Virus genome (UHGV): UHGV-0015805
Length of the DNA stretch: 64,000 nt
Source: a virus
Direction: 5' to 3' (one strand)
Shown in pieces: positions 37,469 through 62,957 of the stretch. The number at the start of each line of letters is the position of its first letter. The stretch's first letter is position 1. The notes under the pieces are model-generated. The model saw nothing but the letters and a program-made list of their open reading frames with translations, did no database searches and was not told where the DNA came from. Both the position numbers and the translations under genes were made by a program.

Positions 37469-40450
37469 TTATCCCCTCTCGTAAGCATATTGAAGTGCAA
37501 GATTTTTCAGCCCGGTTACAAACTCTCTTGCATTTGTTACATTGGGCAATTCAAGGTTGTTGACATTCACAGTGGTGTTGCTGGAATTACCAAACTTAAA
37601 GCCCATTAAGCCCTTGAGCGCAGATACAAAATCACTCGGAGATGTGCTACCCCATGCAAACAAATTCTTAGTAACGCCGCTTGTAAGTATGCCGTCACCA
37701 CGATTAAGAATGCGCATTTCAGGACCGTTCTCTCCGACAAGGCTCATGCCGCCAGTTGCGCCAAGCGTGCCGTTTGCATAGCTCGACCACTTGCCTGTTG
37801 CGGCATCATAGGTCGAATTATCTTCAAGCAATTTGGCCAGCTCAACATTTGCATTATGCAACGCCTCGCGCTCGGCAGAGCTTGTAGATGTTGCCCACGC
37901 CGCGCTATTAGCTTGCATCTTGTCAAGAATGGTCTGTCTGACCTCTGCTTTTCTGCGAGCTTCAATGTCCGCCTTGCTTGCCTCTAAGCCTTTATTGCGA
38001 TTATATTCGTCAAGCTTTGCCTGCGCCGCAGATATTGCATCCGCATCTTGCACATACTGGAATCGACCGTCTTTATATACAAGCTTTTTCTGCTCTCTTG
38101 CCTTAGCCATTTCATCGAGCAGTTTTTCATATTCAATTTGGTCGGACAGGGCATCATTAACTTCTTCAAGCCGCGACAGTTCAGAATCATACTTTTCGTT
38201 GATTTTATCAACGGCGTCCTCGACCGACTTAGTTGATTCTTCGACCAACTCTTGCATGCGCTTCTTTTCATACGCATAAATCTTTTCAGAATATTGCCAA
38301 TATTCTTCTTGATATTTGGACTTGCCCTTAAAGAATTTATCGACCATTTCAGTAAGCTCAGCGTAATACTGCTCTTCTGTAATTTCGTCCATTGCAAGTT
38401 GATGGTCTTTATATGCAAGCCAATCTGTAAATGCTTTTTTGTAGGTGTCTGTGGCGGAAGATGCGGCGCTCGAACTGGAACTATATGTTGCGAGCAGTTG
38501 TTCCAGCCACGCAATTTCATCTTCGATATTTTTTATGTTCTGTTCTGCAGTGGCTACTAATGCGTCCTGTCGGGCTGCTTCAGCTTCGGCTTCTTCAGCT
38601 GTTGACAAAAGCTGTGTTTGCCCCATTAAACTCTGTCTTGTCCTGAATCTTAGTGCCTCTGCTTTTGCGGCTTCGGCGTGCGACAATGCCGTTTTCTGCG
38701 CCTGTAATTCCTCTTGTTTTTGCAATAGAACAAATTGCGTTAACTCCTTGCTTCCGCGCAACGCCGCCTTGCCTGCCGATGTCAACGCGCCCGCTTCGTC
38801 ATAAAGTAGGTCATTAAGCCCAGGCAACGCTTCGTCTAATGCTTCTTGCGTTTCAGATTGCAATCCGCCATAAGTATTATAGTCCTGAACTGCCTTATTT
38901 AATGCATTTTGTGCTTTTGCGAGATTGTCGACATTATCTCGCTGGGCTTTTGTTATTCCTGCATTTTTGCCTGCTTGGGTGTTAAGGTTTGCAACAGTTT
39001 CTCCGAGCGATTGAGCCGCAACATTGGCTCTTTCTAATTTTCCTTCCGCGTTTTCAATCGCCTCGTCATACTGCCTTATCTCTTCAATAGTAGCGCTAAC
39101 TTCTTTTGACATGAAGCTCGGGAATATCCCATATCGAAGAACATTCTCATAAAAGCGAATCAAATCGTCCGTGTCCATTAAAGAAACATCAACATCAAGG
39201 TTTTCGCCAAGCCCCGTTATATCAAATCCGAGCGCGTCTCTGTATCGTTTTAGCCTTTCTTGGAGCTCTTGCATCTCAGCGCGTAGTTTATCGCCTGCAG
39301 ATTCGCGAGATGCTTTTGACTCTATTATTTGCCCATAATAAGCCGTTTGCTTTTCTTGCAACGCCGCTTGAAGCGCCTCTTGCTTCATCGCTTCGATGCG
39401 TTTATAAATTGCACCAGTATCTTCTTTGATTTTACCAGTATGTTCGCCAATGCTGAGATTCAAGTCGGGGTAAATTTTATTAAGTTGGTCTACGGCGCTT
39501 TTATACTTATACGCCTCACTCGTAGACATATTCTCAACCTTGTTAAGGTCTTCAATTACCCCAACCAAATATTTTGCTTGTTCGGCATTCGCCTTAGCAA
39601 TATTTGTGGCATCTGTATAAGTGGCGTTAATTGTTTCTATGGACTTATTTATCTTGTTGATTGTGCCGTACTGCGCATCATAAGCATCTTTAACAAGCCC
39701 TATCATAACCGTTAGCGCCGCCATTGCAATGCCAACGACAGGCACAGACGCCTGCAATGCTTTTACGCCAGTTGTCGCGCCAGCCAAAACAGATGTAAAT
39801 GCTTTTATCGATTTTATTGCGACTGGAATGACTTGCGCAATAATTCCGCCGAGCCCAGTAAAAACGCCACTCAGCAAAACAAATTGTGTTAAAGTTCTGC
39901 CTGCTTCGGTGTTCAATACTTTTAACGCGCCATTAGCCAAATTAAGCAAAGACTTAACCAATTCGCTATCAATGGTTTTGTTTGCAAAATCTTCCCATGT
40001 TGCTTTTAATGCAGTTGTTTTTGCTTCAAGCGAATCAAGGACTTTTGCATTTTCTGCTGCGGCCGAACCCGAAGAATTGTATGCAAGCTCTGTTGCTTTT
40101 TGAACGCCCGAAAAGTTAGAAAGCAATGCAGCAAGATTCTGCGATTGCCTTGCTCCTGCCGCCTGTTGCAAGAAATAAGATTGCTCGTTCTTGCTAAGTG
40201 AATCCCACTTGGGGGCAAGGTCGGACATAACATCGTACAGCGACCTTAACTGCCCTGCCTCGTCTTTGACCGCAATTCCGTGCTTTGTATACCATGCAAG
40301 CAGGTTTTTACCTGTGCTTGATGATTCGTCTACAATTTGGTTAAAGCGACTCTGCACTGTAACAAGTGAGCGTGAAGCAGATGCCGCAGAACGAGTAATT
40401 TCGGTAATGCCAGTTAATACATAATTTATTTGCCAGAGGACGCCAACCCT
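37469..40450 (-). CDS. tape measure protein, 3' exon (frame open upstream of the GTG at 40357 to about 40450)
   Basis: LAWYTKHGIAVKDEAGQLRSLYDVMSDL matches the TP901-family TMP core continuation. Long coiled-coil, 960+ aa. Upstream frame stays open through the end of the intron ORF. Confidence 0.75.
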   Translation of the reverse strand, partial: RVGVLWQINYVLTGITEITRSAASASRSLVTVQSRFNQIVDESSSTGKNLLAWYTKHGIAVKDEAGQLRSLYDVMSDLAPKWDSLSKNEQSYFLQQAAGARQSQNLAALLSNFSGVQKATELAYNSSGSAAAENAKVLDSLEAKTTALKATWEDFANKTIDSELVKSLLNLANGALKVLNTEAGRTLTQFVLLSGVFTGLGGIIAQVIPVAIKSIKAFTSVLAGATTGVKALQASVPVVGIAMAALTVMIGLVKDAYDAQYGTINKINKSIETINATYTDATNIAKANAEQAKYLVGVIEDLNKVENMSTSEAYKYKSAVDQLNKIYPDLNLSIGEHTGKIKEDTGAIYKRIEAMKQEALQAALQEKQTAYYGQIIESKASRESAGDKLRAEMQELQERLKRYRDALGFDITGLGENLDVDVSLMDTDDLIRFYENVLRYGIFPSFMSKEVSATIEEIRQYDEAIENAEGKLERANVAAQSLGETVANLNTQAGKNAGITKAQRDNVDNLAKAQNALNKAVQDYNTYGGLQSETQEALDEALPGLNDLLYDEAGALTSAGKAALRGSKELTQFVLLQKQEELQAQKTALSHAEAAKAEALRFRTRQSLMGQTQLLSTAEEAEAEAARQDALVATAEQNIKNIEDEIAWLEQLLATYSSSSSAASSATDTYKKAFTDWLAYKDHQLAMDEITEEQYYAELTEMVDKFFKGKSKYQEEYWQYSEKIYAYEKKRMQELVEESTKSVEDAVDKINEKYDSELSRLEEVNDALSDQIEYEKLLDEMAKAREQKKLVYKDGRFQYVQDADAISAAQAKLDEYNRNKGLEASKADIEARRKAEVRQTILDKMQANSAAWATSTSSAEREALHNANVELAKLLEDNSTYDAATGKWSSYANGTLGATGGMSLVGENGPEMRILNRGDGILTSGVTKNLFAWGSTSPSDFVSALKGLMGFKFGNSSNTTVNVNNLELPNVTNAREFVTGLKNLALQYAYERG

Positions 40451-41853
40451 CTAAGCGATTCTTGAAAAAATATTTTATAAGAATTGTCCTTATCAAATAA
40501 ATAATAAGGTATTCTTATCAAAGGAATGTTGTTTTCTTTGCAATAAGCATCTTTTATCTTATCATGCCTTTTAGTGCTTTCAAAAGTTTTTTGAGCGCGC
40601 TCAAATGATATGCGATTAAAACAACACGGTTTATAGTGACCTTGTCCGTCTATTTCCACAAGAATGCCACCATCTACGATGTAGAAATCAAACGGTAACG
40701 GCAGTATATCCCTGCATTGATTTAATGAATATTGCCGCACATATTTAATATTAAGTTCTTGTAGAAGCTTTTCAAACATGTCCTCAAACCGCGACATGCT
40801 CTTAGCGCAAACAGAACACCTCGTTTTCCCATTTTGAAACGCCGCTATTGATGTATCAAATCGGTTGCCACATTCGCAAATAAACGAAAGGGATGTCAAT
40901 CTTCCACCTTGATACTCTTTGTCGTTGCAAAATCCAATACACTCTACGTTTGCGCCATGTGTACTTGCCCACCAATTCACATTGTAAATATAGTTCTTTC
41001 TATTTATCCGAACATCAAAACGAGACATTCCTTTGCCAGAATTTATTGCAGCTGCAGAAATAAATCCTCTATATCCTTCGGCGTCCTCGACCTCTACCCT
41101 TTGAGCATACTTTAAATCTCTCGTATCTTCATCAGATATTATCTTATAGCCGTGTGCGGATATCATCTCTCCGTATATTCTTTTTTGTCTTTTTGACGCC
41201 CGAACTTTTGTTGCGCATGACACGCAAACGAAACGATTTCTACAAGATATCTCGTATACTTTTTTACGAAATACATTTCCACAACCGCAACGAAGTTCAA
41301 TTATGGCGCACCCGTTTCGACCAGTTGACCACGAGACAAACTCAGTGGTCGGCGCACATTTTGACAAAAGAACACGCATATTATGCTCGATGTTTGCGTA
41401 ATTATATTTACCCCATATTGTTGGCGACTTACCAGCCTTTAAGTTGGAATAAGACGCATAACACCATATTCCGTCCTTTCTTTCGCAAAGCACATATTCG
41501 TTTGCATTGACATAATCACCAATTATTTTAAGTCCATGAGAGTTAAACAATTTTATAACTTCAGAATATTCTAATTTTTTCAAGAATCCTCCCTCTTTCA
41601 ATGGAGATTAGACCATATCTTTTTTACCTATGTTTCCCCGCGCTTGCGGGTATGCCTACTGAATTAGTAGGGCTTACTGGTCGTTGAACAGTTATCAATT
41701 ACCTATTGATAACTTGCTGCGGATTATCCAATCTCTATATTTGTTACTATACAGCAGTCATTACTTGCTCCACCGCATTATTACTAATACGGTTTAGTAT
41801 ATAGAGCTCTAAGGAACTTCCCGTCAATTTATAGGTTTTTAATTGACCTATTA
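40380..41853 (-). mobile_element. group I intron (with ORF) interrupting the tape measure gene
   Basis: Minus-strand core contains canonical Q element AATCCGCAGC and R element GTTCAACGACCAGTAAGCC. Flanking ORFs are consecutive pieces of one TMP domain. Boundaries approximate. Confidence 0.6.
40426..41601 (-). CDS. intron-encoded homing endonuclease, PD-(D/E)xK Vsr/DUF559-like C-terminal domain with zinc-finger N-terminus
   Basis: C-terminal FDFYIVDGGILVEIDGQGHY...KDAYCKENNIPLIRIPYY; several CxxC pairs; TTG start after AGGGAGG. Confidence 0.55.
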   Translation of the reverse strand: MKEGGFLKKLEYSEVIKLFNSHGLKIIGDYVNANEYVLCERKDGIWCYASYSNLKAGKSPTIWGKYNYANIEHNMRVLLSKCAPTTEFVSWSTGRNGCAIIELRCGCGNVFRKKVYEISCRNRFVCVSCATKVRASKRQKRIYGEMISAHGYKIISDEDTRDLKYAQRVEVEDAEGYRGFISAAAINSGKGMSRFDVRINRKNYIYNVNWWASTHGANVECIGFCNDKEYQGGRLTSLSFICECGNRFDTSIAAFQNGKTRCSVCAKSMSRFEDMFEKLLQELNIKYVRQYSLNQCRDILPLPFDFYIVDGGILVEIDGQGHYKPCCFNRISFERAQKTFESTKRHDKIKDAYCKENNIPLIRIPYYLFDKDNSYKIFFQESLRGLASSGK

Positions 41854-42168
41854 ACCTAAGCCAATGCTCTCTTCCATCGTATTTCCGCCAACAGACATTG
41901 CGGCAGACATATTTCCGAGGTTTCGAGCTAAATCTGCTGAAGAAACCGCCATATGGTTGCTGACATTATTGACGCTATCAATGATATGAGAAGATTCATC
42001 AGCAGCAATATTAAATGCCTTCATCTGGGCAATGATAAACTCAGATGCTTCACCCGCCGAAAGTTGCTCATCGGCGATATTTTGGTACATAGCGGCAACT
42101 TTTGCTAATTCCGCAGCATCGGTTTCATTGAACCCGGCTTTCGCAAATTCGGTTGCGCTTTCCACCAT
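41851..42168 (-). CDS. tape measure protein, middle exon (TP901-family core segment)
   Basis: ELAKVAAMYQN...SSADLARNLGNMSAAMSVGGNTMEESIGLG matches the TMP core; closed upstream by an in-frame TAA three codons before the ATG. Confidence 0.6.
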   Translation of the reverse strand: MVESATEFAKAGFNETDAAELAKVAAMYQNIADEQLSAGEASEFIIAQMKAFNIAADESSHIIDSVNNVSNHMAVSSADLARNLGNMSAAMSVGGNTMEESIGLG

Positions 42169-42181
42169 TTGGGACTTTTAT

Positions 42182-42415
42182 TCAATCTTTCTTGGAGTAA
42201 TCAATAAATCCCCAATCGTTATGCTCTTTTTCTTCTCTTCTGTACCGCTCGGACACCCGCCTATCTTCTTCTTCCCATTTTCTGTATTGTTCGGGATTAT
42301 TCTTCTTGGCAGCATCCTTATCAAAAGGAATTCCAAAAACAACATGCCTGAAGAAGCAAGCAACGCCATAGCAGACACAATAAAGCATCATCAAAGGAAC
42401 CGCAATTAACAACAT
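42182..42415 (-). CDS. small single-pass membrane protein encoded inside intron B
   Basis: MLLIAVPLMMLYCVCYGVACFF followed by a highly charged tail; own promoter and RBS AAGGTGGG. Confidence 0.45.
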   Translation of the reverse strand: MLLIAVPLMMLYCVCYGVACFFRHVVFGIPFDKDAAKKNNPEQYRKWEEEDRRVSERYRREEKEHNDWGFIDYSKKD

Positions 42416-42444
42416 AATCAAGCCCACCTTTCTTTGTTGATGCC

Positions 42445-42473
42445 ATTATAACACATAACTTTTAGATTGTCAA
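42445..42473 (-). promoter_or_regulatory. consensus promoter (TTGACA-17-TATAAT) on the minus strand inside intron B
   Basis: Minus-sense ttgacaatctaaaagttatgtgttataat. Confidence 0.5.
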
Positions 42474-42725
42474 TACCTTTTTCGAAATATTCTGGACTAT
42501 TTCTTCACCCTATTTAATTTGGAGGGGTCGAACTTATAAAGTCTCTTGACACATCCCTGTTCGGGACTTCGCGCCCAATCTACCATTGTTTGTCCCGAAC
42601 AATATACAATATTCGTGACAAATTGCACTTAGGTCTTTCGACCATATGCTATCCCGCTTATTTTTAACAGTTTCCCACATTCACACTTGGGCTTATTTCA
42701 TCCCTATGTTGTAGTTAAACAGGCT

Positions 42726-43193
42726 TTAGGTTTTACTGGGTTTTGAACAATTCTCTGTGCTGGTTTGCCATCCCATCACACGGGCTCCCGTCCATAGTTT
42801 ACCCGTCTTCGCAACTTCTGCTCCCATGTCGGTTAGCTTGCTCACATATTCGTCCATTGATTCGCCGGACAAATCTGTGACCTTTGCTAATTCGACCTGC
42901 GCGGCATTCATGGTGTAGACTTCAGAGACCATAGACTTAATAATATCTATGCTCTTCTCCATAATCATGTTCGCCGCTTGATATGTTAATTCAAAATTCT
43001 TCGCGCTGGACGAGGCTTCGTTCATGTTCTTCGACAGATTGCTTATTCCGTCAGATGCTTCCTTAGCCCCTTTTGCTTTGATATTGATATTGACATTTTT
43101 TGCCGCGTCATTCAATTTCTTTTGAATTTCGCTTGTACTTGTCTTTATCTCAATACCTACGCCAATATTCCAGCTCGTGTTTTTATTCGCCAT
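42726..43193 (-). CDS. tape measure protein, 5' exon (N-terminal segment); C-terminal ~20 codons probably intron-derived
   Basis: N-terminal TMP-like VELAKVTDLSGESMDEYVSKLTDMGAEVAKTGK; the ORF stop coincides with the conserved intron 5' motif cctaaagcct. Confidence 0.55.
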   Translation of the reverse strand: MANKNTSWNIGVGIEIKTSTSEIQKKLNDAAKNVNINIKAKGAKEASDGISNLSKNMNEASSSAKNFELTYQAANMIMEKSIDIIKSMVSEVYTMNAAQVELAKVTDLSGESMDEYVSKLTDMGAEVAKTGKLWTGARVMGWQTSTENCSKPSKT

Positions 43194-55473: not shown

Positions 55474-55989
55474 TTAGTTGGACTCCTTGAGAATCCAGAA
55501 GTCAGGAACATCGTGGTCATAAGCGCCGATTCTTTCATCGCCATAAATGACCATCTTATCATTGAGCAAAATTACCTGCTCGACGATTTCATTTACATCC
55601 TCCAGCATATCCAGCAAATCGGCATAAACATGGATATCGTTGTTATCAAGCGCAATTTTGCATGCGCCCATAAACATTATCTGGAAATCAATGACGCGTC
55701 GTTCAACCTCAGCAATAATGTCGCTGGCTCTGTCATAATCCTCAGCGCCACTTGGCGTCTCGCCATAGATGACGGCGATATTATAGCGCTCAAGGCATCT
55801 CTCTGCGATTTTATCTGCCAGCGCTAACGGCCAATGGGCAATCCCGTGATGGATTAAATTTGCAGACTGATTGCAAGCAAATTTTACACCTAAGACCGAA
55901 ACGCACCTATCTGTAACTCTGTTGAGAACAAAGCACTGTTTGATTAACTCCATAAGAGCGGACTGTGTGTTATTAGATACAATCGTCAT
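55474..55989 (-). CDS. hypothetical protein (cargo of the endonuclease cassette)
   Basis: 171-aa ORF. Confidence 0.4.
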   Translation of the reverse strand: MTIVSNNTQSALMELIKQCFVLNRVTDRCVSVLGVKFACNQSANLIHHGIAHWPLALADKIAERCLERYNIAVIYGETPSGAEDYDRASDIIAEVERRVIDFQIMFMGACKIALDNNDIHVYADLLDMLEDVNEIVEQVILLNDKMVIYGDERIGAYDHDVPDFWILKESN

Positions 55990-57028
55990 TGGAATTATCT
56001 CCTAATATATTATTTATTTTTGCCTTAAAAGAACCATCCATAATTTCAACATAGCTCAACGCAAGATATTTATAGCCACAAGATTTGGCATATTCCATTT
56101 TATAGTTATCACGCCATTGCAAATCTTTTAGCCATTCGCCTTGCGTCTTGTCTCCAAGCCAACACTTTGGAGCACATGGCAAATAATGCTGTATGCCATG
56201 CACCTCTATAATAATATTGTGCCCTACTATTTCATTATCAAACGGCATTCTACTGCCCGTATTCGGATTTATTGGTACAATAGCGCAAGCGTACTCATGC
56301 AATGTCTGCAACCCAAGACACTTATTGATATAGTGTTTAACGGCAAGCTCTATGCTTGAATCGGTCATCTCGCCCAGGCAATCAGGGCACATTAAATCAT
56401 AAACCCTTGAATATAAAGCAAGTGCACTTGTCTTATATTCCTTTCCGCACTTAGGACATATAATATAAACGTCCCTATGGCTTTTTGCAGTAAGCTCATT
56501 CGGAGCGCGGTCGTTTTTGTCACTCCAAATATTAGAAAGTTCTACGTCTGGATATTTAGATATCAACGAATCCATTAAGCTACCATTTTCTCTTATTGAA
56601 TTTAACGACCTTTTGTACGCAACATATTCCTTTATAGATTTGAACCCATGCTTCTTACACTCATTACACGCCGTTATCTTGCCAGATGTCAAATCATATA
56701 CAGCCACTTCAATGGTGTTCCCACATTTGCATCTACACTTCCATAAAAATCCATTCTTAGTAACTATATATGTGTTCTCGATTGCGACTAATGTCCCAAA
56801 TGTTCTGCCTTGCAAATTGGCCGTTCGTCTTATGGATGAATCTTTATCTCTAATGCACCCACAGCTAAGAGATGCTCCGCTTTTAAGGTGTGTGCCCATA
56901 ACAGATTTAATATTGCCACACGAACATCTACATATCCATCTAATATGCCCAGCAGAGTTCTCTTCGTCCTTATGCAATACTTGCCATTCTCCAAATTCCA
57001 GCCCAGTCAAATCTTTGAATTTCCCCAT
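55973..57028 (-). CDS. free-standing homing endonuclease (Vsr/DUF559-like nuclease C-terminus; N-terminal zinc-finger module shared with the early HNH protein)
   Basis: IIIEVHGIQHY...WRD (PD-(D/E)xK-like); CSCGNIKSVMGTHLKSGASLSCGC and CKCGNTIEVAVYDLTSGKITACNEC; RBS GGAGG. Confidence 0.55.
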   Translation of the reverse strand: MGKFKDLTGLEFGEWQVLHKDEENSAGHIRWICRCSCGNIKSVMGTHLKSGASLSCGCIRDKDSSIRRTANLQGRTFGTLVAIENTYIVTKNGFLWKCRCKCGNTIEVAVYDLTSGKITACNECKKHGFKSIKEYVAYKRSLNSIRENGSLMDSLISKYPDVELSNIWSDKNDRAPNELTAKSHRDVYIICPKCGKEYKTSALALYSRVYDLMCPDCLGEMTDSSIELAVKHYINKCLGLQTLHEYACAIVPINPNTGSRMPFDNEIVGHNIIIEVHGIQHYLPCAPKCWLGDKTQGEWLKDLQWRDNYKMEYAKSCGYKYLALSYVEIMDGSFKAKINNILGDNSNDDCI

Positions 57029-57194
57029 ATAATATCAACCTCCGTTAAAAGTTAATATTAAGCGGTAATCCAAGTATTAACGGTACTTGAAAACACCCGT
57101 CGGTGCTGTCCCGCTGTTCATCCTCATTCAAGCATCTCACGGCTTGCATATTCCCAAATAAAACCTTTTGATGTTTTTCGCTTTCCTTAATATA

Positions 57195-57396: not shown

Positions 57397-58965
57397 TTAA
57401 TCGGCATACAATTCGCGGCTTGCCTCGGTCGCAGCATCTACCGCTCCTTCTTCGCGCGGTCTGCCACCTTCTGATTCCTGCGAAGTTGTATTGATGTTTA
57501 CCATAAGTTGGCTATATTGCTCAAGCCATCCAGTGTTCTTGCTCTCTCTCAAAGCCGCCTCAAACAATGCGGGGTTCTGCCCTAAAACAGATGCCCAAGC
57601 AGATGGCGGCAAAACAATGCCCCTGTCTGCCAATTTGTTAATTTGGTCAAATCTTTGAGTGCGATCATATCTATATGTCGCGCCGTCAAATGTAAACTTG
57701 AACTTATACTTCTTTGTCATTTGATTAACAAAGAAATCCATAAAGTTGTTAAACTGTGCATACATTGGACGCATGGTTTGATAAACTTCGTTCTGTTGCG
57801 CCTCAAGTTCCGCCGCGCTTACTCTGTCAGTAGAATAAATAACGCGACTAATGCCAGTGCCACTTGCAGCAGTTGTAGCAACCTGGTCTTTATACATGTC
57901 GCCGTTTTTATCCTCAAACTGGAACAGTTTGTTATCTTCGGTCGGCATTGCCCCCAATTTAACAAGAGAACCGAATCCCGCCTTTGCCTTTGCCATAAGC
58001 TGCCCAAGCAGTTTAAGGTTAATTGCAAACTGGTCTTTTTGTTCGCCCGATTTTGCACCATCATAAAGCCTGATTGTGCCGACAAGAATTGCATATGCAG
58101 AAATCAGGTCTTTATTATATTGCAGGCGCTCAACTTCTTCGTCTCGAAGAATATTCTTGACAAAAGATGCCAAGAACGGTACGGGAGAAAATGTTGATGG
58201 GTCCATTTTGAAAGTATAGGCTCCAAGAACAGGTGACGCATCTGCCCACAAAGCATATGTGCCAGTTCGCTTATTTAATGGCGCAGACGGTTTATAATCA
58301 ATGCCAGGAGATTCCATGACTCGCTCATACATCTTGCGTACAGCGGGGTCAAATTCGCCAATGTCGACGCCCGGTTGCATAAAGTATGTCATGTCCATTG
58401 AGTAAAGTAAGCCCTTTTCCCAATAGCCCGTAATCATACATCTGTCCTGCGGCATCATCTGCAATGCATACCGCATTTTCTTATTGCCATTGCCAGGCTT
58501 TGATTTGCGGAACCATGTGAAATATGTTTCGCGCCGCATAACATTCATCAGAACATTATGGAATTCTTTCTTGTAATCAAAGTTAAGAAGAAAGTCCTCG
58601 ACCCGCGCTTTATCTTTTACATATTCAGCGCTTTCATAGTCCGCCTTTGTATATGCATTTGTGCACACATAAGACAGGTCAAGCGCCAAAGAATTTACAT
58701 AAGAATACAGGGTGCGCTTGAATATCATGTTGAATTGAGCCGCGAACTCATTATACATTTGCAGATTTTCAGGACACGAATTAAAATCAACCAATGCCTT
58801 TTGAATGGCATCATAAGACGGGACGCCTTTTATTGTATTCAAATTCTGCAAAAGTTCATTTGATAAAAATGGCGAATAGTAATTAGAATCCATAAAGGCA
58901 AGCCCCTCAGAAAACTTTATAATGTCCTCAAGCTCTTCTCTTTCAAGCCTTTCTTTTCCGTTCAC
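57397..58965 (-). CDS. portal protein
   Basis: 522 aa immediately downstream of the terminase; GTG start with RBS AAGGAGGTG. Confidence 0.55.
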   Translation of the reverse strand: MNGKERLEREELEDIIKFSEGLAFMDSNYYSPFLSNELLQNLNTIKGVPSYDAIQKALVDFNSCPENLQMYNEFAAQFNMIFKRTLYSYVNSLALDLSYVCTNAYTKADYESAEYVKDKARVEDFLLNFDYKKEFHNVLMNVMRRETYFTWFRKSKPGNGNKKMRYALQMMPQDRCMITGYWEKGLLYSMDMTYFMQPGVDIGEFDPAVRKMYERVMESPGIDYKPSAPLNKRTGTYALWADASPVLGAYTFKMDPSTFSPVPFLASFVKNILRDEEVERLQYNKDLISAYAILVGTIRLYDGAKSGEQKDQFAINLKLLGQLMAKAKAGFGSLVKLGAMPTEDNKLFQFEDKNGDMYKDQVATTAASGTGISRVIYSTDRVSAAELEAQQNEVYQTMRPMYAQFNNFMDFFVNQMTKKYKFKFTFDGATYRYDRTQRFDQINKLADRGIVLPPSAWASVLGQNPALFEAALRESKNTGWLEQYSQLMVNINTTSQESEGGRPREEGAVDAATEASRELYAD

Positions 58966-58986: not shown

Positions 58987-59967
58987 TTAATATACAAGTT
59001 GTAAATCGTCAATATCATAATCTTCATCGTCATTGGTCAGGCGTTTATTCCATTCCATTTCGATTTTATCGATTACAATATTGACATAAGACATAACAAC
59101 AACGCGGTCTTTGGTCGCCTTATTGTCTTCTTTAAGATATAGATTGTCTCCCTTTATTTCTGTGTTAAGCTTGATTGCTTCCTGAATAAGCAGGTCTGTC
59201 TCGCCATAAGGGGCAAGCTTGTCTGCTAATTCTTCTGAGGTCAATTTGAAGTATTCGCCCGAATCTTCAAGCTCTTGCTGTTTGTCCGCCATAGATACAA
59301 GCATCTTTATGTCGTTACATTCAAGATGCTTTCTAAGTGCAAGCCACCAAACACCATTCTTTTGTGCCGAGCCCTGTGCAGGAATAATGCATGGGACAGC
59401 ATCTTTATCAACCGTCCGCATACGCAAATCGGCAAGCTTTGATTCTGTTACGAGGTGATAGTTAAAATTCTGAGCGACTGTCAATCCTCGTGAATCCCAC
59501 ATATAGCCGCGCCTTGGATGCGTCCTTTTTTCGGTCATAAGGTTATATAGTGTTTCGCCGCCCGCTCTAAGGTCGTTTACAATAAAGTCTGCGTTATAGT
59601 CCCAAAACAGCTCTCTAACGCGCCATTGCGCGCCTGTACTGTCTGAGGCGGGCCATTGTTCCATATATTCAAGACTACGGATGAACCGACCGTTTTTCCA
59701 GACAGCCGACCAGCACTCAATAATTGTATTATCGTTGCCGTATCCCGTCTTAAATGTTGTGTTCGCAAATGCGTAGTCAACGCCAACAAGCCGTATTTCG
59801 TCCGCTTGTTTTTCTCTGAACGGCGGCTTTGTGTTCGCCAATACCTGTGTATCGGTAGGCGGAACATATGCCTCTGGAATTTCTTGATTGTCCTTAAAAT
59901 TCTTTAGGCTAAAGAATGCACCTTCGGGACTACCCTGTGTTTCATTTTCCATCTCCATTGAAAACAT
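58987..59967 (-). CDS. terL: terminase large subunit, 3' exon (RNase H-like nuclease domain)
   Basis: IRLVGVDYAF first catalytic Asp motif; about 320-aa nuclease-domain-sized ORF. Confidence 0.65.
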   Translation of the reverse strand: MFSMEMENETQGSPEGAFFSLKNFKDNQEIPEAYVPPTDTQVLANTKPPFREKQADEIRLVGVDYAFANTTFKTGYGNDNTIIECWSAVWKNGRFIRSLEYMEQWPASDSTGAQWRVRELFWDYNADFIVNDLRAGGETLYNLMTEKRTHPRRGYMWDSRGLTVAQNFNYHLVTESKLADLRMRTVDKDAVPCIIPAQGSAQKNGVWWLALRKHLECNDIKMLVSMADKQQELEDSGEYFKLTSEELADKLAPYGETDLLIQEAIKLNTEIKGDNLYLKEDNKATKDRVVVMSYVNIVIDKIEMEWNKRLTNDDEDYDIDDLQLVY

Positions 59968-61185
59968 TTTTTTAAACTATTTTTTTTGAGGTTAATTATA
60001 TATATTGCCAGTGAAATCCATATGCGATCCGTTGTTGCCCGCGACAACACTTGGAAATTGAGGACGGGTCCTTGTTCAAGGCACGACCCGCCTCAGCCAC
60101 GGATTCATAAGTAACTCCCGTTTCGACACACATCAGCTTCTTCCCACCAATGTTAAGATGTGCAATCCGCGATTGATCTCGCATCTCCTCTGTCCAAATT
60201 CGATTTTTATTATATCTTCTAAGATGCTCTTTTACGCTTTCTGGACATTTGTGCCCTACTCCGTTCCTCTTACCTTTCATCCTCTCCGACCTACGACGGC
60301 ATATTTCTTCCGAAAGCTTCCATGTTTTGCCTTTTACATTTTGGTTGCCCATTATACTTTGGCTTATTTTATTTCTTGTTTCTTCGGAATGTTTTTTGCC
60401 GAACATGTGATTATCTTTCCCGCATTTTATTTGTTCCGGGTGTTCTTTAAAACGTTTTTTAGCTATTTCGCTCATTCTCTTCTTGTCTTCTTCTCTGTGA
60501 CGATATCCTTTTGTGCTTTCTGCTATCGGACATATATTGTATCCGACATCTCTGTCGGCACTATCATAAAAATCTATCCAATACTGCTCGCGTTGTGTTA
60601 AATTTTCGTGCGATACGCCTCTTTCCAACACTTCAACACTAAAGTTATCAAATCCATACTTTTTAATAGCCATGCAGATACGCCTATTTGTATCTTCGCG
60701 TAAGTATTGTTTCATACGAGTATAAAAATCCACCGTCTGCCCGACATAAACCTTCCCGTTTATTAGGTTTCGCCATAAATAAATGCAACTAAAAGAAAAT
60801 TTCTTTTTATCATTAACCTCAAAAATATTCATGCTATAAAATCCTTCCTGCAATAAAGATTATTATTCAAGAACAAATGGGGTAATTTGTTCGTTTGCAG
60901 ACGAACAAAAACAATTTGCAACTTGCTGTCCCCCATTGTTCTTTTAAGCACAGGTCGCTACTCCTCGTTTCTCTCGTTTTTTTGAGAGACTGCATGTTTC
61001 CATGCAGATAAGACTATATCTTCACTTTGCTTTTATGCAAAGGCATACCACTTCCACAACCAATCGCTTGTTGTGTACTCCCTTACGGGATAGTCGTTGA
61101 ACGTTCCTCTATTCAAAGCTTCGCTGCTGATTGCCCAATTTTTATCATTTTCTCGCATATCACACTTAGCCTTATTTCATGCTTA
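59968..61185 (-). mobile_element. group I intron with GIY-YIG endonuclease ORF splitting the terminase large subunit gene
   Basis: Minus-sense AATCAGCAGCGAAGC (Q-like) and GTTCAACGACTATCCCGTAAGGGAGTAC (R element plus GNRA hairpin). ATPase and nuclease domains lie in separate ORFs on either side. Boundaries approximate. Confidence 0.6.
59996..60832 (-). CDS. GIY-YIG homing endonuclease (I-TevI-like, NUMOD repeats)
   Basis: IYLWRNLINGKVYVGQT..F..R...Y GIY-YIG motif; repeated H..E.R.KIS motifs; C-terminal DNA-binding module. Confidence 0.8.
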   Translation of the reverse strand: MNIFEVNDKKKFSFSCIYLWRNLINGKVYVGQTVDFYTRMKQYLREDTNRRICMAIKKYGFDNFSVEVLERGVSHENLTQREQYWIDFYDSADRDVGYNICPIAESTKGYRHREEDKKRMSEIAKKRFKEHPEQIKCGKDNHMFGKKHSEETRNKISQSIMGNQNVKGKTWKLSEEICRRRSERMKGKRNGVGHKCPESVKEHLRRYNKNRIWTEEMRDQSRIAHLNIGGKKLMCVETGVTYESVAEAGRALNKDPSSISKCCRGQQRIAYGFHWQYI

Positions 61186-62067
61186 TGTTGTAGCTGATAA
61201 AACTCTAAGGGTGTTCCAGCAATTCAATATGTTTAATGCGAACCTTTTCAAATCCGCTTTGGACATTTTCTTCTTTGCCTTTCGGTAGTCCGCCCATGTT
61301 CGGCTTCCTTCTTGAATTGCAGTATAAATGTCCTCTGCCATAGGAATGTACTTCTCGTGCTTTGATGTATAATAGCCCTCAACGCATTTTCTGTATTCTC
61401 TGATAAACCATTCCCACTCATACCGAGTAGATGAAATATAGCAAGATTTTGCTGCCTTTATCCACCTATCTGTTTTATACTTAGGGTCAAGTGTAAATGG
61501 CGCAGGACGCTCATGCCCCATTGGCTCAAATACTGAGTCAAGAATTGCTTTCTTCAGCAATCGCGTCTCTTCATATATCGTAAATGTAGAACGCATACCA
61601 CGGGCGTTTTCAGAACACACAGCGACCGTTGTCGTTGATTCATTTAATGTGTTCGTTAAGACGAAAACACCCTCATCAAGCATTTTAACTGTCAAATAGC
61701 CCTTCTCATACAAATACTTCAAATATGGCGAATATTTCTTAATGATTTCTTTTATCATCTTATCTCTTACAAGTCTTGCGGACTGCGGGATAGAAGATGA
61801 TGTAACAACAATTTCTGAATGCGGATATAAACTCATTGCACAAAATGCAGCAACGCCAACAATAAAAGACTTCGCCGTTGAACGAGACGAAAAATCCCAA
61901 TATTCGTCGGCAACGCCGATCATGTGCAATTTCAGCTTCTGCACAGGATATAGCTTAATACCAAGGACCTCTTCAGCAAATAAGTCCCAATTCCTGCGAT
62001 AATAAGTTATCCACTTTTTGACATTTTCGGACTTGCGGAATTGTTCGTTTTCTCTTGCGGTCGGCAT
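61183..62067 (-). CDS. terL: terminase large subunit, 5' exon (ATPase domain)
   Basis: LYPVQKLKLHMI and SSRSTAKSF (Walker A-like), typical of the TerL N-terminus; last residues probably intron-encoded. Confidence 0.65.
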   Translation of the reverse strand: MPTARENEQFRKSENVKKWITYYRRNWDLFAEEVLGIKLYPVQKLKLHMIGVADEYWDFSSRSTAKSFIVGVAAFCAMSLYPHSEIVVTSSSIPQSARLVRDKMIKEIIKKYSPYLKYLYEKGYLTVKMLDEGVFVLTNTLNESTTTVAVCSENARGMRSTFTIYEETRLLKKAILDSVFEPMGHERPAPFTLDPKYKTDRWIKAAKSCYISSTRYEWEWFIREYRKCVEGYYTSKHEKYIPMAEDIYTAIQEGSRTWADYRKAKKKMSKADLKRFALNILNCWNTLRVLSATT

Positions 62068-62957
62068 TACAACTGCTCCTTAGGAATATTGGGGTAGTTC
62101 TTCGTCCCCGCAATCATATTCTGCATTGACCGCATCCAATCATTATATATTTTCTCATAGCCCTTAACATCCTTATACCGCTCCTCATCCGTCAATTCAG
62201 CAGGCTCAGTATTCTCAAATTTCCATGCCAAGTGGTCTATGTATCTATCTTCGTCCGATTTTGTATTGTCTCTGAAATCATCTATGCGCAACAATTTCAT
62301 CCATTTCAGGATTTCATCAGTTGTAGATTTTGTTTCTTCGCCCGCTTCGCTTTCTTTCTTAAAGCGCAAATTGCATTTGCATAAAGACCTATATGCCTTT
62401 TCCGCCGAAACAGATATGGCTTCGAGGTCGCGCGTGTAGTCCAAATATTCTCTTTCAAGCCAATCCCAATCATCGGCTGTATAATCGCCCCAACGCGCTC
62501 TATACTTGTTTGCGTCTGCGAGATGGCGGTCAATATCCTTAACTTCGCCACCAACGCCCGTCTTTATCATGTCGGACAACATGGCATCTGATTGCCAAAA
62601 GCCCTCATATACGCGATTTAAGTTAGCAAGCGAAATCAAGTAGAATGTGATTAAATCACCCGTTTTGTCGTTTTCATACATTTCAGATGCAGCATACCAC
62701 GCCTCCAAAATGAACGGAACGCCCATCTGCGCCAAAACAAGCCACAGTGCCGCCATCGGCTTTTCTACCTTATCTGTGTAGTCTTTAAGTAATCTTTTGC
62801 CACACCTGCGGCACACAAAAAATTGCATGTTGGGAACGGATGTCGTTGAGTAAAAATCGCTTATTGGCTTTCTTGACCCACAGGCAACGCACAGCCGCAC
62901 ATTCCTGCTATCCGCCCTAATGCTTTTGGTCGGAGCTTTCTTTTTTGCTGTCGGCAC
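62067..62957 (-). CDS. putative terminase small subunit (N-terminal zinc ribbon)
   Basis: Sits directly upstream of terL with a TAATG overlap; CVACG...CRRCG. Confidence 0.35.
   Translation of the reverse strand: MPTAKKKAPTKSIRADSRNVRLCVACGSRKPISDFYSTTSVPNMQFFVCRRCGKRLLKDYTDKVEKPMAALWLVLAQMGVPFILEAWYAASEMYENDKTGDLITFYLISLANLNRVYEGFWQSDAMLSDMIKTGVGGEVKDIDRHLADANKYRARWGDYTADDWDWLEREYLDYTRDLEAISVSAEKAYRSLCKCNLRFKKESEAGEETKSTTDEILKWMKLLRIDDFRDNTKSDEDRYIDHLAWKFENTEPAELTDEERYKDVKGYEKIYNDWMRSMQNMIAGTKNYPNIPKEQL

Follow-up and report, generated by a model that had tools for sequence, protein, structure and literature searches.

Group I introns in large terminase genes (terL) of phages are already documented. 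The terminase gene of Lactobacillus phage LL-H was reported to contain one (Mikkonen & Alatossava 1995, as cited in PMC4299906), Bacillus phage Moonbeam has two terminase introns that each bear a homing endonuclease gene (HEG; PMC4299906), and 5 of 52 terL genes are split among the Bastillevirinae, where splicing of SIOphi terL was shown both in vitro and in vivo (PMC11878797). The terL introns of the Bastillevirinae carry VSR-type nucleases, while GIY-YIG endonucleases of PHROG 314 are found in introns of ribonucleotide reductase (RNR) and thymidylate synthase genes (PMC11878797). Here, we analyzed a stretch of 64,000 nucleotides (nt) from the UHGV virus genome UHGV-0015805, referred to in its entirety as the window, in which terL very probably holds a 1287-nt group I intron of subgroup IA between codons D272 and F273, with an I-TevI-like GIY-YIG HEG downstream of the ribozyme core. 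The element adds exact coordinates to a documented class and would not surprise a specialist.

The window resembles LL-H, Moonbeam and the Bastillevirinae in its terL host, its subgroup-IA-like ribozyme, the HEG that is often embedded in such introns, and the expected restoration of TerL by splicing. It differs from them in the TerL family concerned, which is distant and related to Enterocloster phages and SPbeta, and in that its HEG is of the GIY-YIG type (PHROG 314) rather than the VSR type of the Bastillevirinae terL introns. The td intron of phage T4 with its endonuclease I-TevI is similar in other respects, being a subgroup-IA phage intron with a GIY-YIG HEG, aligned catalytic residues and modular NUMOD-type DNA-binding repeats. 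In its mechanism, too, the window element would resemble td/I-TevI. However, the td host gene encodes thymidylate synthase, and the open reading frame (ORF) of I-TevI loops out of P6, whereas the ORF in the window lies after P9. I-TevI cleaves ~23-25 nt upstream of the insertion site; the window HEG is only distantly related to it (E = 5e-4 to 1LN0) and is longer, at 278 amino acids (aa). The layout is like that of the T4 nrdD (sunY) intron with I-TevIII, in which the endonuclease ORF stands 3' of a compact core and the 3' splice site is far from P9, although both the host gene and the HEG family are different. The closest cultured relatives of the host gene are those of phages CB457P1, CB457P2 and CB473P1-P3 (41% aa identity). 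A literature search returned no paper on introns in this Enterocloster phage group.

The interrupted terminase gene and the boundaries of its intron

Three consecutive minus-strand ORFs occupy the locus (62067..61183, 294 aa; 60853..59996, 285 aa; 59967..58987, 326 aa) and are followed by a fourth at 58965..57397 (522 aa). A preliminary description of this DNA had proposed that the outer two of the three encode the ATPase and nuclease domains of TerL, separated by an intron of about 61185..59968. A gathering-threshold Rfam scan of the whole window identified a match to the group I intron model RF00028 at 61259..60990 on the minus strand, which covers the full length of the model (positions 1-253). 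The score of 81.6 bits (gathering score 50; E = 3.5e-19) excludes chance, so that the covariance-model check suggested in that description was strongly positive, and the group I core elements it had pointed out on the coding strand (AATCAGCAGC, GTTCAACGACTA and UCCC-GUAA-GGGA) all lie within the match. Because the match begins inside the upstream ORF, the tail of that ORF must be intron. This agrees with the earlier suspicion that its terminal residues are intron-encoded: the last 22 codons (LKRF...SATT) fall within the intron, the extent of which we correct to 61251..59965.

The boundaries were derived from nucleotide alignment to intron-less alleles, from the U expected before the 5' splice site and the G expected as the last intron base, and from the reading frame. 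Since the intron starts with UU and exon 2 with UUUU, they are unique only through the terminal-G requirement, and the chosen U/G assignment is the sole one that is both in frame and colinear with the empty sites. The predicted P1 hairpin comprises 8 bp and a GAAA loop with a minimum free energy (MFE) of -8.5 kcal/mol, maps to the P1 region of the Rfam alignment, and places its U61252.G61243 wobble at a codon boundary. The 5' part (AAAG) of the internal guide, 61249..61238, can pair with the UUUU of exon 2 to form a 4-bp P10. Possible acceptors are limited to phase 0 after a G, and P10 measures 4 bp for G59965, 3 bp for G59977 and 0 bp for the others. Donors after U61251 or U61250, as well as the acceptors G59956, G59953, G59950 and, as the main site, G59977, were rejected on the basis of frame, stop codons, motif alignment and P10. 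With G59965, the protein reads ...MSKAD^FSMEMENETQG (^ marks the junction), and joining GCGGAU^UUUUCA yields a product of 597 aa. The ligated RNA is predicted to read ...AAAGCGGAU-UUUUCAAUGGAG with 1287 nt removed, and the junction-spanning peptide of the spliced TerL is predicted as ...MSKADFSMEMENETQGSPEGAFFSLK.

Comparison with homologues is consistent with this junction. With the spliced product as query, 294 matches were obtained among 5.8 billion proteins, and among the matches listed most were single proteins of ~600-620 aa that cover 98-100% of the query; relatives with two TerL halves as separate proteins were not seen. The best match, P0001, is 96% identical and has exactly the predicted spliced length (597 aa). 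The motif D/S-F-x-M/C-E-x-x-N spans the junction without an insertion or deletion in 9 of 9 homologues inspected, and three alleles without the intron, L001, L004 (99% aa identity) and L005, run colinear with the predicted ligated exons across GAT^TTT at the nucleotide level. The insert is precisely absent from phages that are 96-99% identical in TerL, and the comparison with intron-less terL homologues, which had been recommended beforehand, defines a single in-frame insertion site. By contrast with a genuine start, the apparent ATG of the downstream ORF is formed by the last three intron bases (AUG, terminal G at 59965), and no Shine-Dalgarno sequence was found when we looked for one before it.

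The identity of the interrupted gene as terL was confirmed by comparison of its predicted fold, by Pfam matches in some family members and by the adjoining portal gene. Pfam returned no match for either TerL ORF, and searches of PDB sequences with the spliced window protein, by phmmer or with a 47-sequence profile, gave noise only, while 3 to 5 of the 47 homologues reach Pfam TerL_ATPase (1e-10), Terminase_6C or Terminase_6N. An AlphaFold model of the spliced TerL, built from the 47-member family alignment, has a mean pLDDT of 85, and its top 37 Foldseek matches in the PDB are all large terminases, full-length and single-domain, led by T4 gp17 (1e-14) and followed by Sf6 gp2, D6E, HK97, T7, the P74-26 ATPase domain and the G20c nuclease domain. 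Residues R62, K66, E167, D335, D403 and D558 are invariant among the 47 family members, and E166 nearly so. By position and pattern, R62..K66 would represent Walker A, I164-E167 Walker B with the catalytic Glu (E166, E167), and D335, D403 and D558 the acidic residues of the nuclease.

Exon 1 accounts for most of the ATPase domain, and exon 2 for its end, the linker and the RNase H-like nuclease domain. The junction falls late in the ATPase domain, inside a conserved helix formed by residues 270-277, and precedes the first nuclease strand by ~55 residues. The two ORFs at 61183..62067 and 58987..59967 therefore exist as described earlier, and their designation as ATPase and nuclease ORFs was approximately right, but the split does not fall exactly at the domain boundary. 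Among cultured relatives whose gene is uninterrupted, Enterocloster phage PMBT24 (41% aa identity) is the nearest; its homologue carries the annotation "terminase large subunit" and is followed by "portal protein". The TR-TP phages likewise have homologues with a terminase annotation. Relatives of this TerL are found in Enterocloster, Thomasclavelia and SPbeta-type phages; with these as relatives, an affiliation with crAss-like phages was dropped.

Ribozyme, endonuclease and competing explanations

We next examined the core in an alignment of 37 sequences, consisting of the window copy and 36 near-full-length relatives from viral contigs (IMG/VR). RNAalifold, run without Rfam input, recovered P3, P4, P5, P6, P7.1, P7.2, P8 and P9, with compensatory changes in 31 of 39 pairs. 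When P7 was added as a pseudoknot, 95.4% of cells could pair, compared to 38-46% with the partners slid by 1-3 columns. Changes on both sides were present in 32 of 44 pairs, and none of 500 shuffles reached any of the observed measures. Covariation is strong in P3, P5, P6, P7.2, P8 and P9, with double changes in all five pairs of P7.2 (5/5), while P4, P7 and P7.1 are nearly invariant and therefore uninformative in this respect. The window copy forms every helix, most of which also appear when its sequence is simply folded by itself to the MFE. The presence of P7.1 and P7.2 between P7 and P3', a hallmark of IA introns, assigns the element to subgroup IA, the usual phage type of group I intron.

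The GIY-YIG/NUMOD endonuclease that had been proposed between the TerL ORFs was recovered as well. The ORF at 59996..60853 matches Pfam GIY-YIG (PF01541, 8.9e-11) and NUMOD3 (1.1e-7, above the cut-off) as well as PHROG 314 "homing endonuclease" (1e-41), with further matches to NUMOD1 and I-HmuI_NUMOD-like, both below cut-offs. Mechanically, the ORF begins at TTG 60853; the likely start is ATG 60832, which has a ribosome-binding site (RBS), GGAAGGA, 9 nt upstream. In the protein, a GIY-YIG domain at the N terminus is followed by a NUMOD3 module and, at the C terminus, by a NUMOD1/I-HmuI-like helix-turn-helix. Over its first 90 residues, it aligns to the catalytic domain of I-TevI (1LN0/1MK0) with the catalytic positions kept (cIY, vYVG, R for I-TevI R27, rEqyW for E75 and gYNI for N90), and its C-terminal 49 aa match chain 8b6e_A, named sCTP-23166. 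Activity of the HEG and its target site are presumptive. The ORF sits after P9 and peripheral hairpins and ends 31 nt before the 3' splice site. In a by-eye comparison, the 3' tail was found to have the element CUCAAAAA..UAG in common with the related intron of Enterocloster phage CB457P1, and this element may be relevant to presenting the distant 3' splice site. Predicted promoters and terminators in 59800-62200 were no more numerous than in shuffled sequence, and hence there is no evidence for a separate HEG promoter. The coordinates of all features are collected in Table 1.

Table 1. Features of the terL locus and its predicted group I intron in the window.
Feature	Position	Strand	Details and basis
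Upstream gene, small-terminase position	62067..62957	-	PHROG 3314, function unknown; stop overlaps terL start
terL exon 1	61252..62067	-	272 codons; ends ...AAA GCG GAU; colinear with uninterrupted homologues and intron-less L001, L004, L005
Whole group I intron	59965..61251	-	1287 nt; start UUGAAAAGG, end ...AAAAAAUG, terminal G = 59965
P1 hairpin	61238..61257	-	GCGGAU^UU-GAAA-AGGUUCGC; U61252.G61243 wobble at 5' splice site; sequence reading and fold
Ribozyme core	60991..61231	-	Rfam alignment, RNAalifold, pair counts with controls, column-to-coordinate mapping
P3	61231-61226/61049-61044	-	
P4	61220-61216/61130-61126	-	
P5	61211-61209/61136-61134	-	
P4'/P6 segment	61132..61123	-	AATCAGCAGC
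P6	61124-61115/61109-61101	-	
P6'/P7	61102..61091	-	GTTCAACGACTA
P7	61095-61091/61016-61012	-	
P7.1	61090..61079	-	UCCC-GUAA-GGGA
P7.2	61075-61055	-	
P8	61041-61025	-	
P9	61006-60991	-	
Post-P9 structured region	60855..60990	-	UCUCUC..GAGAGA hairpin, longer GAACAAUGGGG..CCCCAUUUGUUC domain, then HEG RBS GGAAGGA; single-sequence folds
Intron-encoded homing endonuclease	59996..60832	-	278 aa from ATG 60832; Pfam, PHROG, I-TevI alignment
Intron 3' tail	59965..59995	-	UUAACCUCAAAAAAAAUAGUUUAAAAAAAUG
terL exon 2	58987..59964	-	325 codons; start UUU UCA AUG GAG (F S M E)
Portal protein gene	57397..58965	-	Directly downstream of terL; PHROG 2739 portal, 2.8e-28

These features suggest the following course of events. 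The terL gene would be transcribed as a single pre-mRNA, on which ribosomes leaving exon 1 would stop 22 codons into the intron. The RNA would fold into P1 and P3-P9, an external guanosine would attack after U61252, held in the U.G pair of P1, and the freed exon 1 would attack after G59965, aligned by the 4-bp P10. Ligation of GCGGAU to UUUUCA would produce the mRNA for an intact TerL of 597 aa, comprising ATPase and nuclease, to package DNA through the adjoining portal. The HEG, translated from its own RBS, would cut the intron-less terL of co-infecting relatives, and repair would copy the intron together with a few flanking exon bases (homing). Catalysis of splicing is what we infer from the sequence.

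Several points weigh against this interpretation. The case for terL splicing is drawn from sequence rather than from RNA, and cellular factors are required by some phage introns, which do not self-splice in vitro (PMC11878797). The intron contains no P2. The 3' splice site lies ~1 kb beyond P9, and the folds do not account for its route to the core; in a co-fold of the post-P9 region with the 3' tail, no convincing helix that would loop out the HEG ORF was found. A 4-bp GAGG/CCUC pairing of the tail with 60967..60964 is weakly predicted, and we do not hold it as established. Furthermore, the in-frame acceptor G59977, 12 nt upstream, with its 3-bp P10, is a possible minor site.

We considered whether the data could be explained otherwise. 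If terL were split without splicing, the 294-aa ATPase and 326-aa nuclease polypeptides would have to assemble non-covalently, as in genes split by free-standing homing endonucleases. Both pieces are indeed ORFs with start codons, and the split is near the ATPase/nuclease boundary, but a complete, covariation-supported ribozyme stands exactly at the break, which cuts a conserved helix (D272^F273, E276, N279) and not a linker. Moreover, the downstream ATG lacks an RBS and is identical to the intron-ending AUG, the 22 extra residues of the upstream ORF are absent from every homologue inspected, and the listed TerL homologues are mostly single chains, all of which makes this explanation very unlikely. 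We judge it highly improbable, in turn, that the intron is real and uses G59977 as its main 3' splice site, giving a TerL with four extra residues (D-FKKM-FSMEME) or mixed products. Although G59977 is in frame, would still end the intron with a G and permits a 3-bp P10, the resulting 4-residue insertion occurs in none of the homologues inspected, the nucleotide sequences of the intron-less alleles agree colinearly with the G59965 junction, and P10 is longer for G59965 (4 bp).

The window being uncultured sequence, the insert could also be a dead intron or a chimeric assembly join that leaves a non-functional terL copy, and a truncated intron-like insert does exist in the portal gene of the related contig L006. 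Yet the terL insert recurs at its site in L006, an independent metagenome contig, no core helix is disrupted, the HEG reading frame is preserved, and the two exons are intact and in frame in a gene that is essential for tailed phages, so that we find this scenario scarcely credible. A spliced group I intron with its main acceptor at G59965 is the interpretation that we adopt in the following.

Filled and empty alleles and the wider intron family

The intron is present in the window and in L006, and absent, at the identical nucleotide, from L001, L004 and L005. In L006, an independent IMG/VR metagenome contig, intron and HEG alike are found at the site of the window copy. Over 1287 nt, the two introns show 4 substitutions and a single 2-nt indel (99.5% identity), and the two HEGs show two conservative residue differences, compared to 35 of 816 and 37 of 978 differing positions in the exons (~96% identical). 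The intron is thus ~ten times less diverged than terL, as expected for recent horizontal spread, and the comparison points to recent homing. Filled and empty alleles, which are otherwise 96-97% identical, are distinguished by 9 clustered substitutions within ~10 nt of the junction (AAAGCGGAT^TTTTCAATG versus GTCGCGGAT^TTTCGCGCA), in the blocks AAA/GTC and TCAATG/CGCGCA; this cluster would fit co-conversion of donor flanks and resistant target variants alike. The intron-less alleles have a CNNNG motif at -26..-22, which provides a lead only for the HEG cleavage site. With filled and empty sites in near-identical phages, the locus represents a clear-cut case of homing in nature.

Another GIY-YIG homologue, 36-39% identical over ~100 aa, is located ~2.8 kb downstream of terL in L004 (8594..8887) and L005 (8533..8838), which suggests different endonuclease insertions across members of this phage group.

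Beyond these close relatives, no related phage emerged when the locus was compared by megablast with 50,697 phage records. The only matches were to the intron core at 61074..61139 (P6/P7/P7.1), which shares ~90% identity over 58-66 nt with regions that lack annotation in Pseudomonas phage PhiPA3 and Escherichia phage Av-05. An exact copy of the 26-nt P7-P7.1 string is present in at least 120 IMG/VR contigs (loci L007-L126), some of which have two or three copies, and the intron family with this P7-P7.1 core is very widespread in phages.

Members of this family also occupy other positions in terL. In CB457P1, CB457P2 and CB473P1-P3 (OP172753-57), TerL is found in three pieces annotated as hypothetical, together with an "intron-associated endonuclease 1". 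The CB457P1 gene (L002, OP172753.1 6704..10155) has two interruptions. The first, of ~265 nt, lies just before Walker B and gave no gathering-level Rfam match. The second is a group I intron (RF00028, 93.6 bits; nhmmer, 110 bits to the window intron) at ADYIVLD^LRNGGE, which corresponds to D403^L404. Like the window intron, it consists of the core, a GIY-YIG HEG that is 35% identical to the window HEG and likewise post-P9, and a short tail with the CUCAAAAAUAG element. It differs from the window intron in its position, within the nuclease domain, and its host gene has the further interruption before Walker B. The 5' exon end GGAU is common to the window site and the CB457P1 site, both of which are HEG-bearing. 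Site-403 introns with a HEG were also found in L050 and L106, and L052 has the core at site 403 with no detectable HEG. In L026, the TerL of which is 26% identical, a HEG-less relative is inserted 8 nt downstream of the window site, in the F-x-M-E motif.

Taken together, related copies appear to occupy at least four conserved terL positions: before Walker B, at D272^F273, 8 nt further on (L026), and at D403^L404. One widespread IA intron family has thereby colonized several motifs that rank among the most conserved in a single TerL family. It is conceivable, if rather unlikely, that the intron family is actively spreading in an uncultured phage population and repeatedly switching target sites within terL. 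Such switching may proceed through reverse splicing into short sequences complementary to the guide, or through a change in the target of the GIY-YIG endonuclease. Were spread and site switching borne out, terL of these gut phages could be used to study, in a natural setting, how introns gain new homing sites.

There is also a practical side to these results. Tailed phages are found and classified with terL as the standard marker; when an intron in it goes unrecognized, the gene appears as two or three "hypothetical proteins", a mis-annotation of split TerL that has occurred in the GenBank records of Enterocloster phages. The exact exons proposed here would give the correct 597-aa TerL for a lineage without a direct Pfam match.

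Neighboring genes and further insertions

The gene upstream of terL is found in the same order in L001 and in phage PMBT24. In addition to the terL intron, the window contains a second group I intron at 41589..41906 on the minus strand (RF00028, 52.1 bits), which splits the tape-measure gene; the ORFs concerned are 41851..42168, 40426..41601 and 37469..40357. The upstream exon ORF matches PhageMin_Tail at 7e-11, and the intron includes a 391-aa Cys-rich ORF that has no Pfam match and ends in a C-terminal ...EIDGQGHY motif resembling DUF559/Vsr-like nucleases. A gap of ~560 nt (42169..42725, minus strand) separates the PhageMin_Tail exon ORF from a TMP_N-like ORF (42726..43193). This gap may represent a further intervening sequence of the tape-measure gene; a permissive Rfam scan found no third intron in this region, even at E < 0.1.

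Shortly downstream of the portal gene, the window has a segment of ~1.3 kb (55792..57116) where L004 and L006, both near-identical phages, have ~200 nt instead. The segment holds a minus-strand ORF (55973..57028) for a 351-aa Cys-rich protein with a DUF4379 treble-clef zinc finger, and looks like a free-standing mobile insertion of the endonuclease type. In L006, the portal gene itself is split into ORFs of 257 aa and 269 aa by an insert of ~1146 nt (5771..6916 of L006; window 58231/58209). This insert contains a truncated group I core (33 bits) from which the P4-P7 region is missing, a 284-aa DUF7487/DUF559 ORF, and two stretches (78 and 55 nt) with 100% identity to the terL intron.

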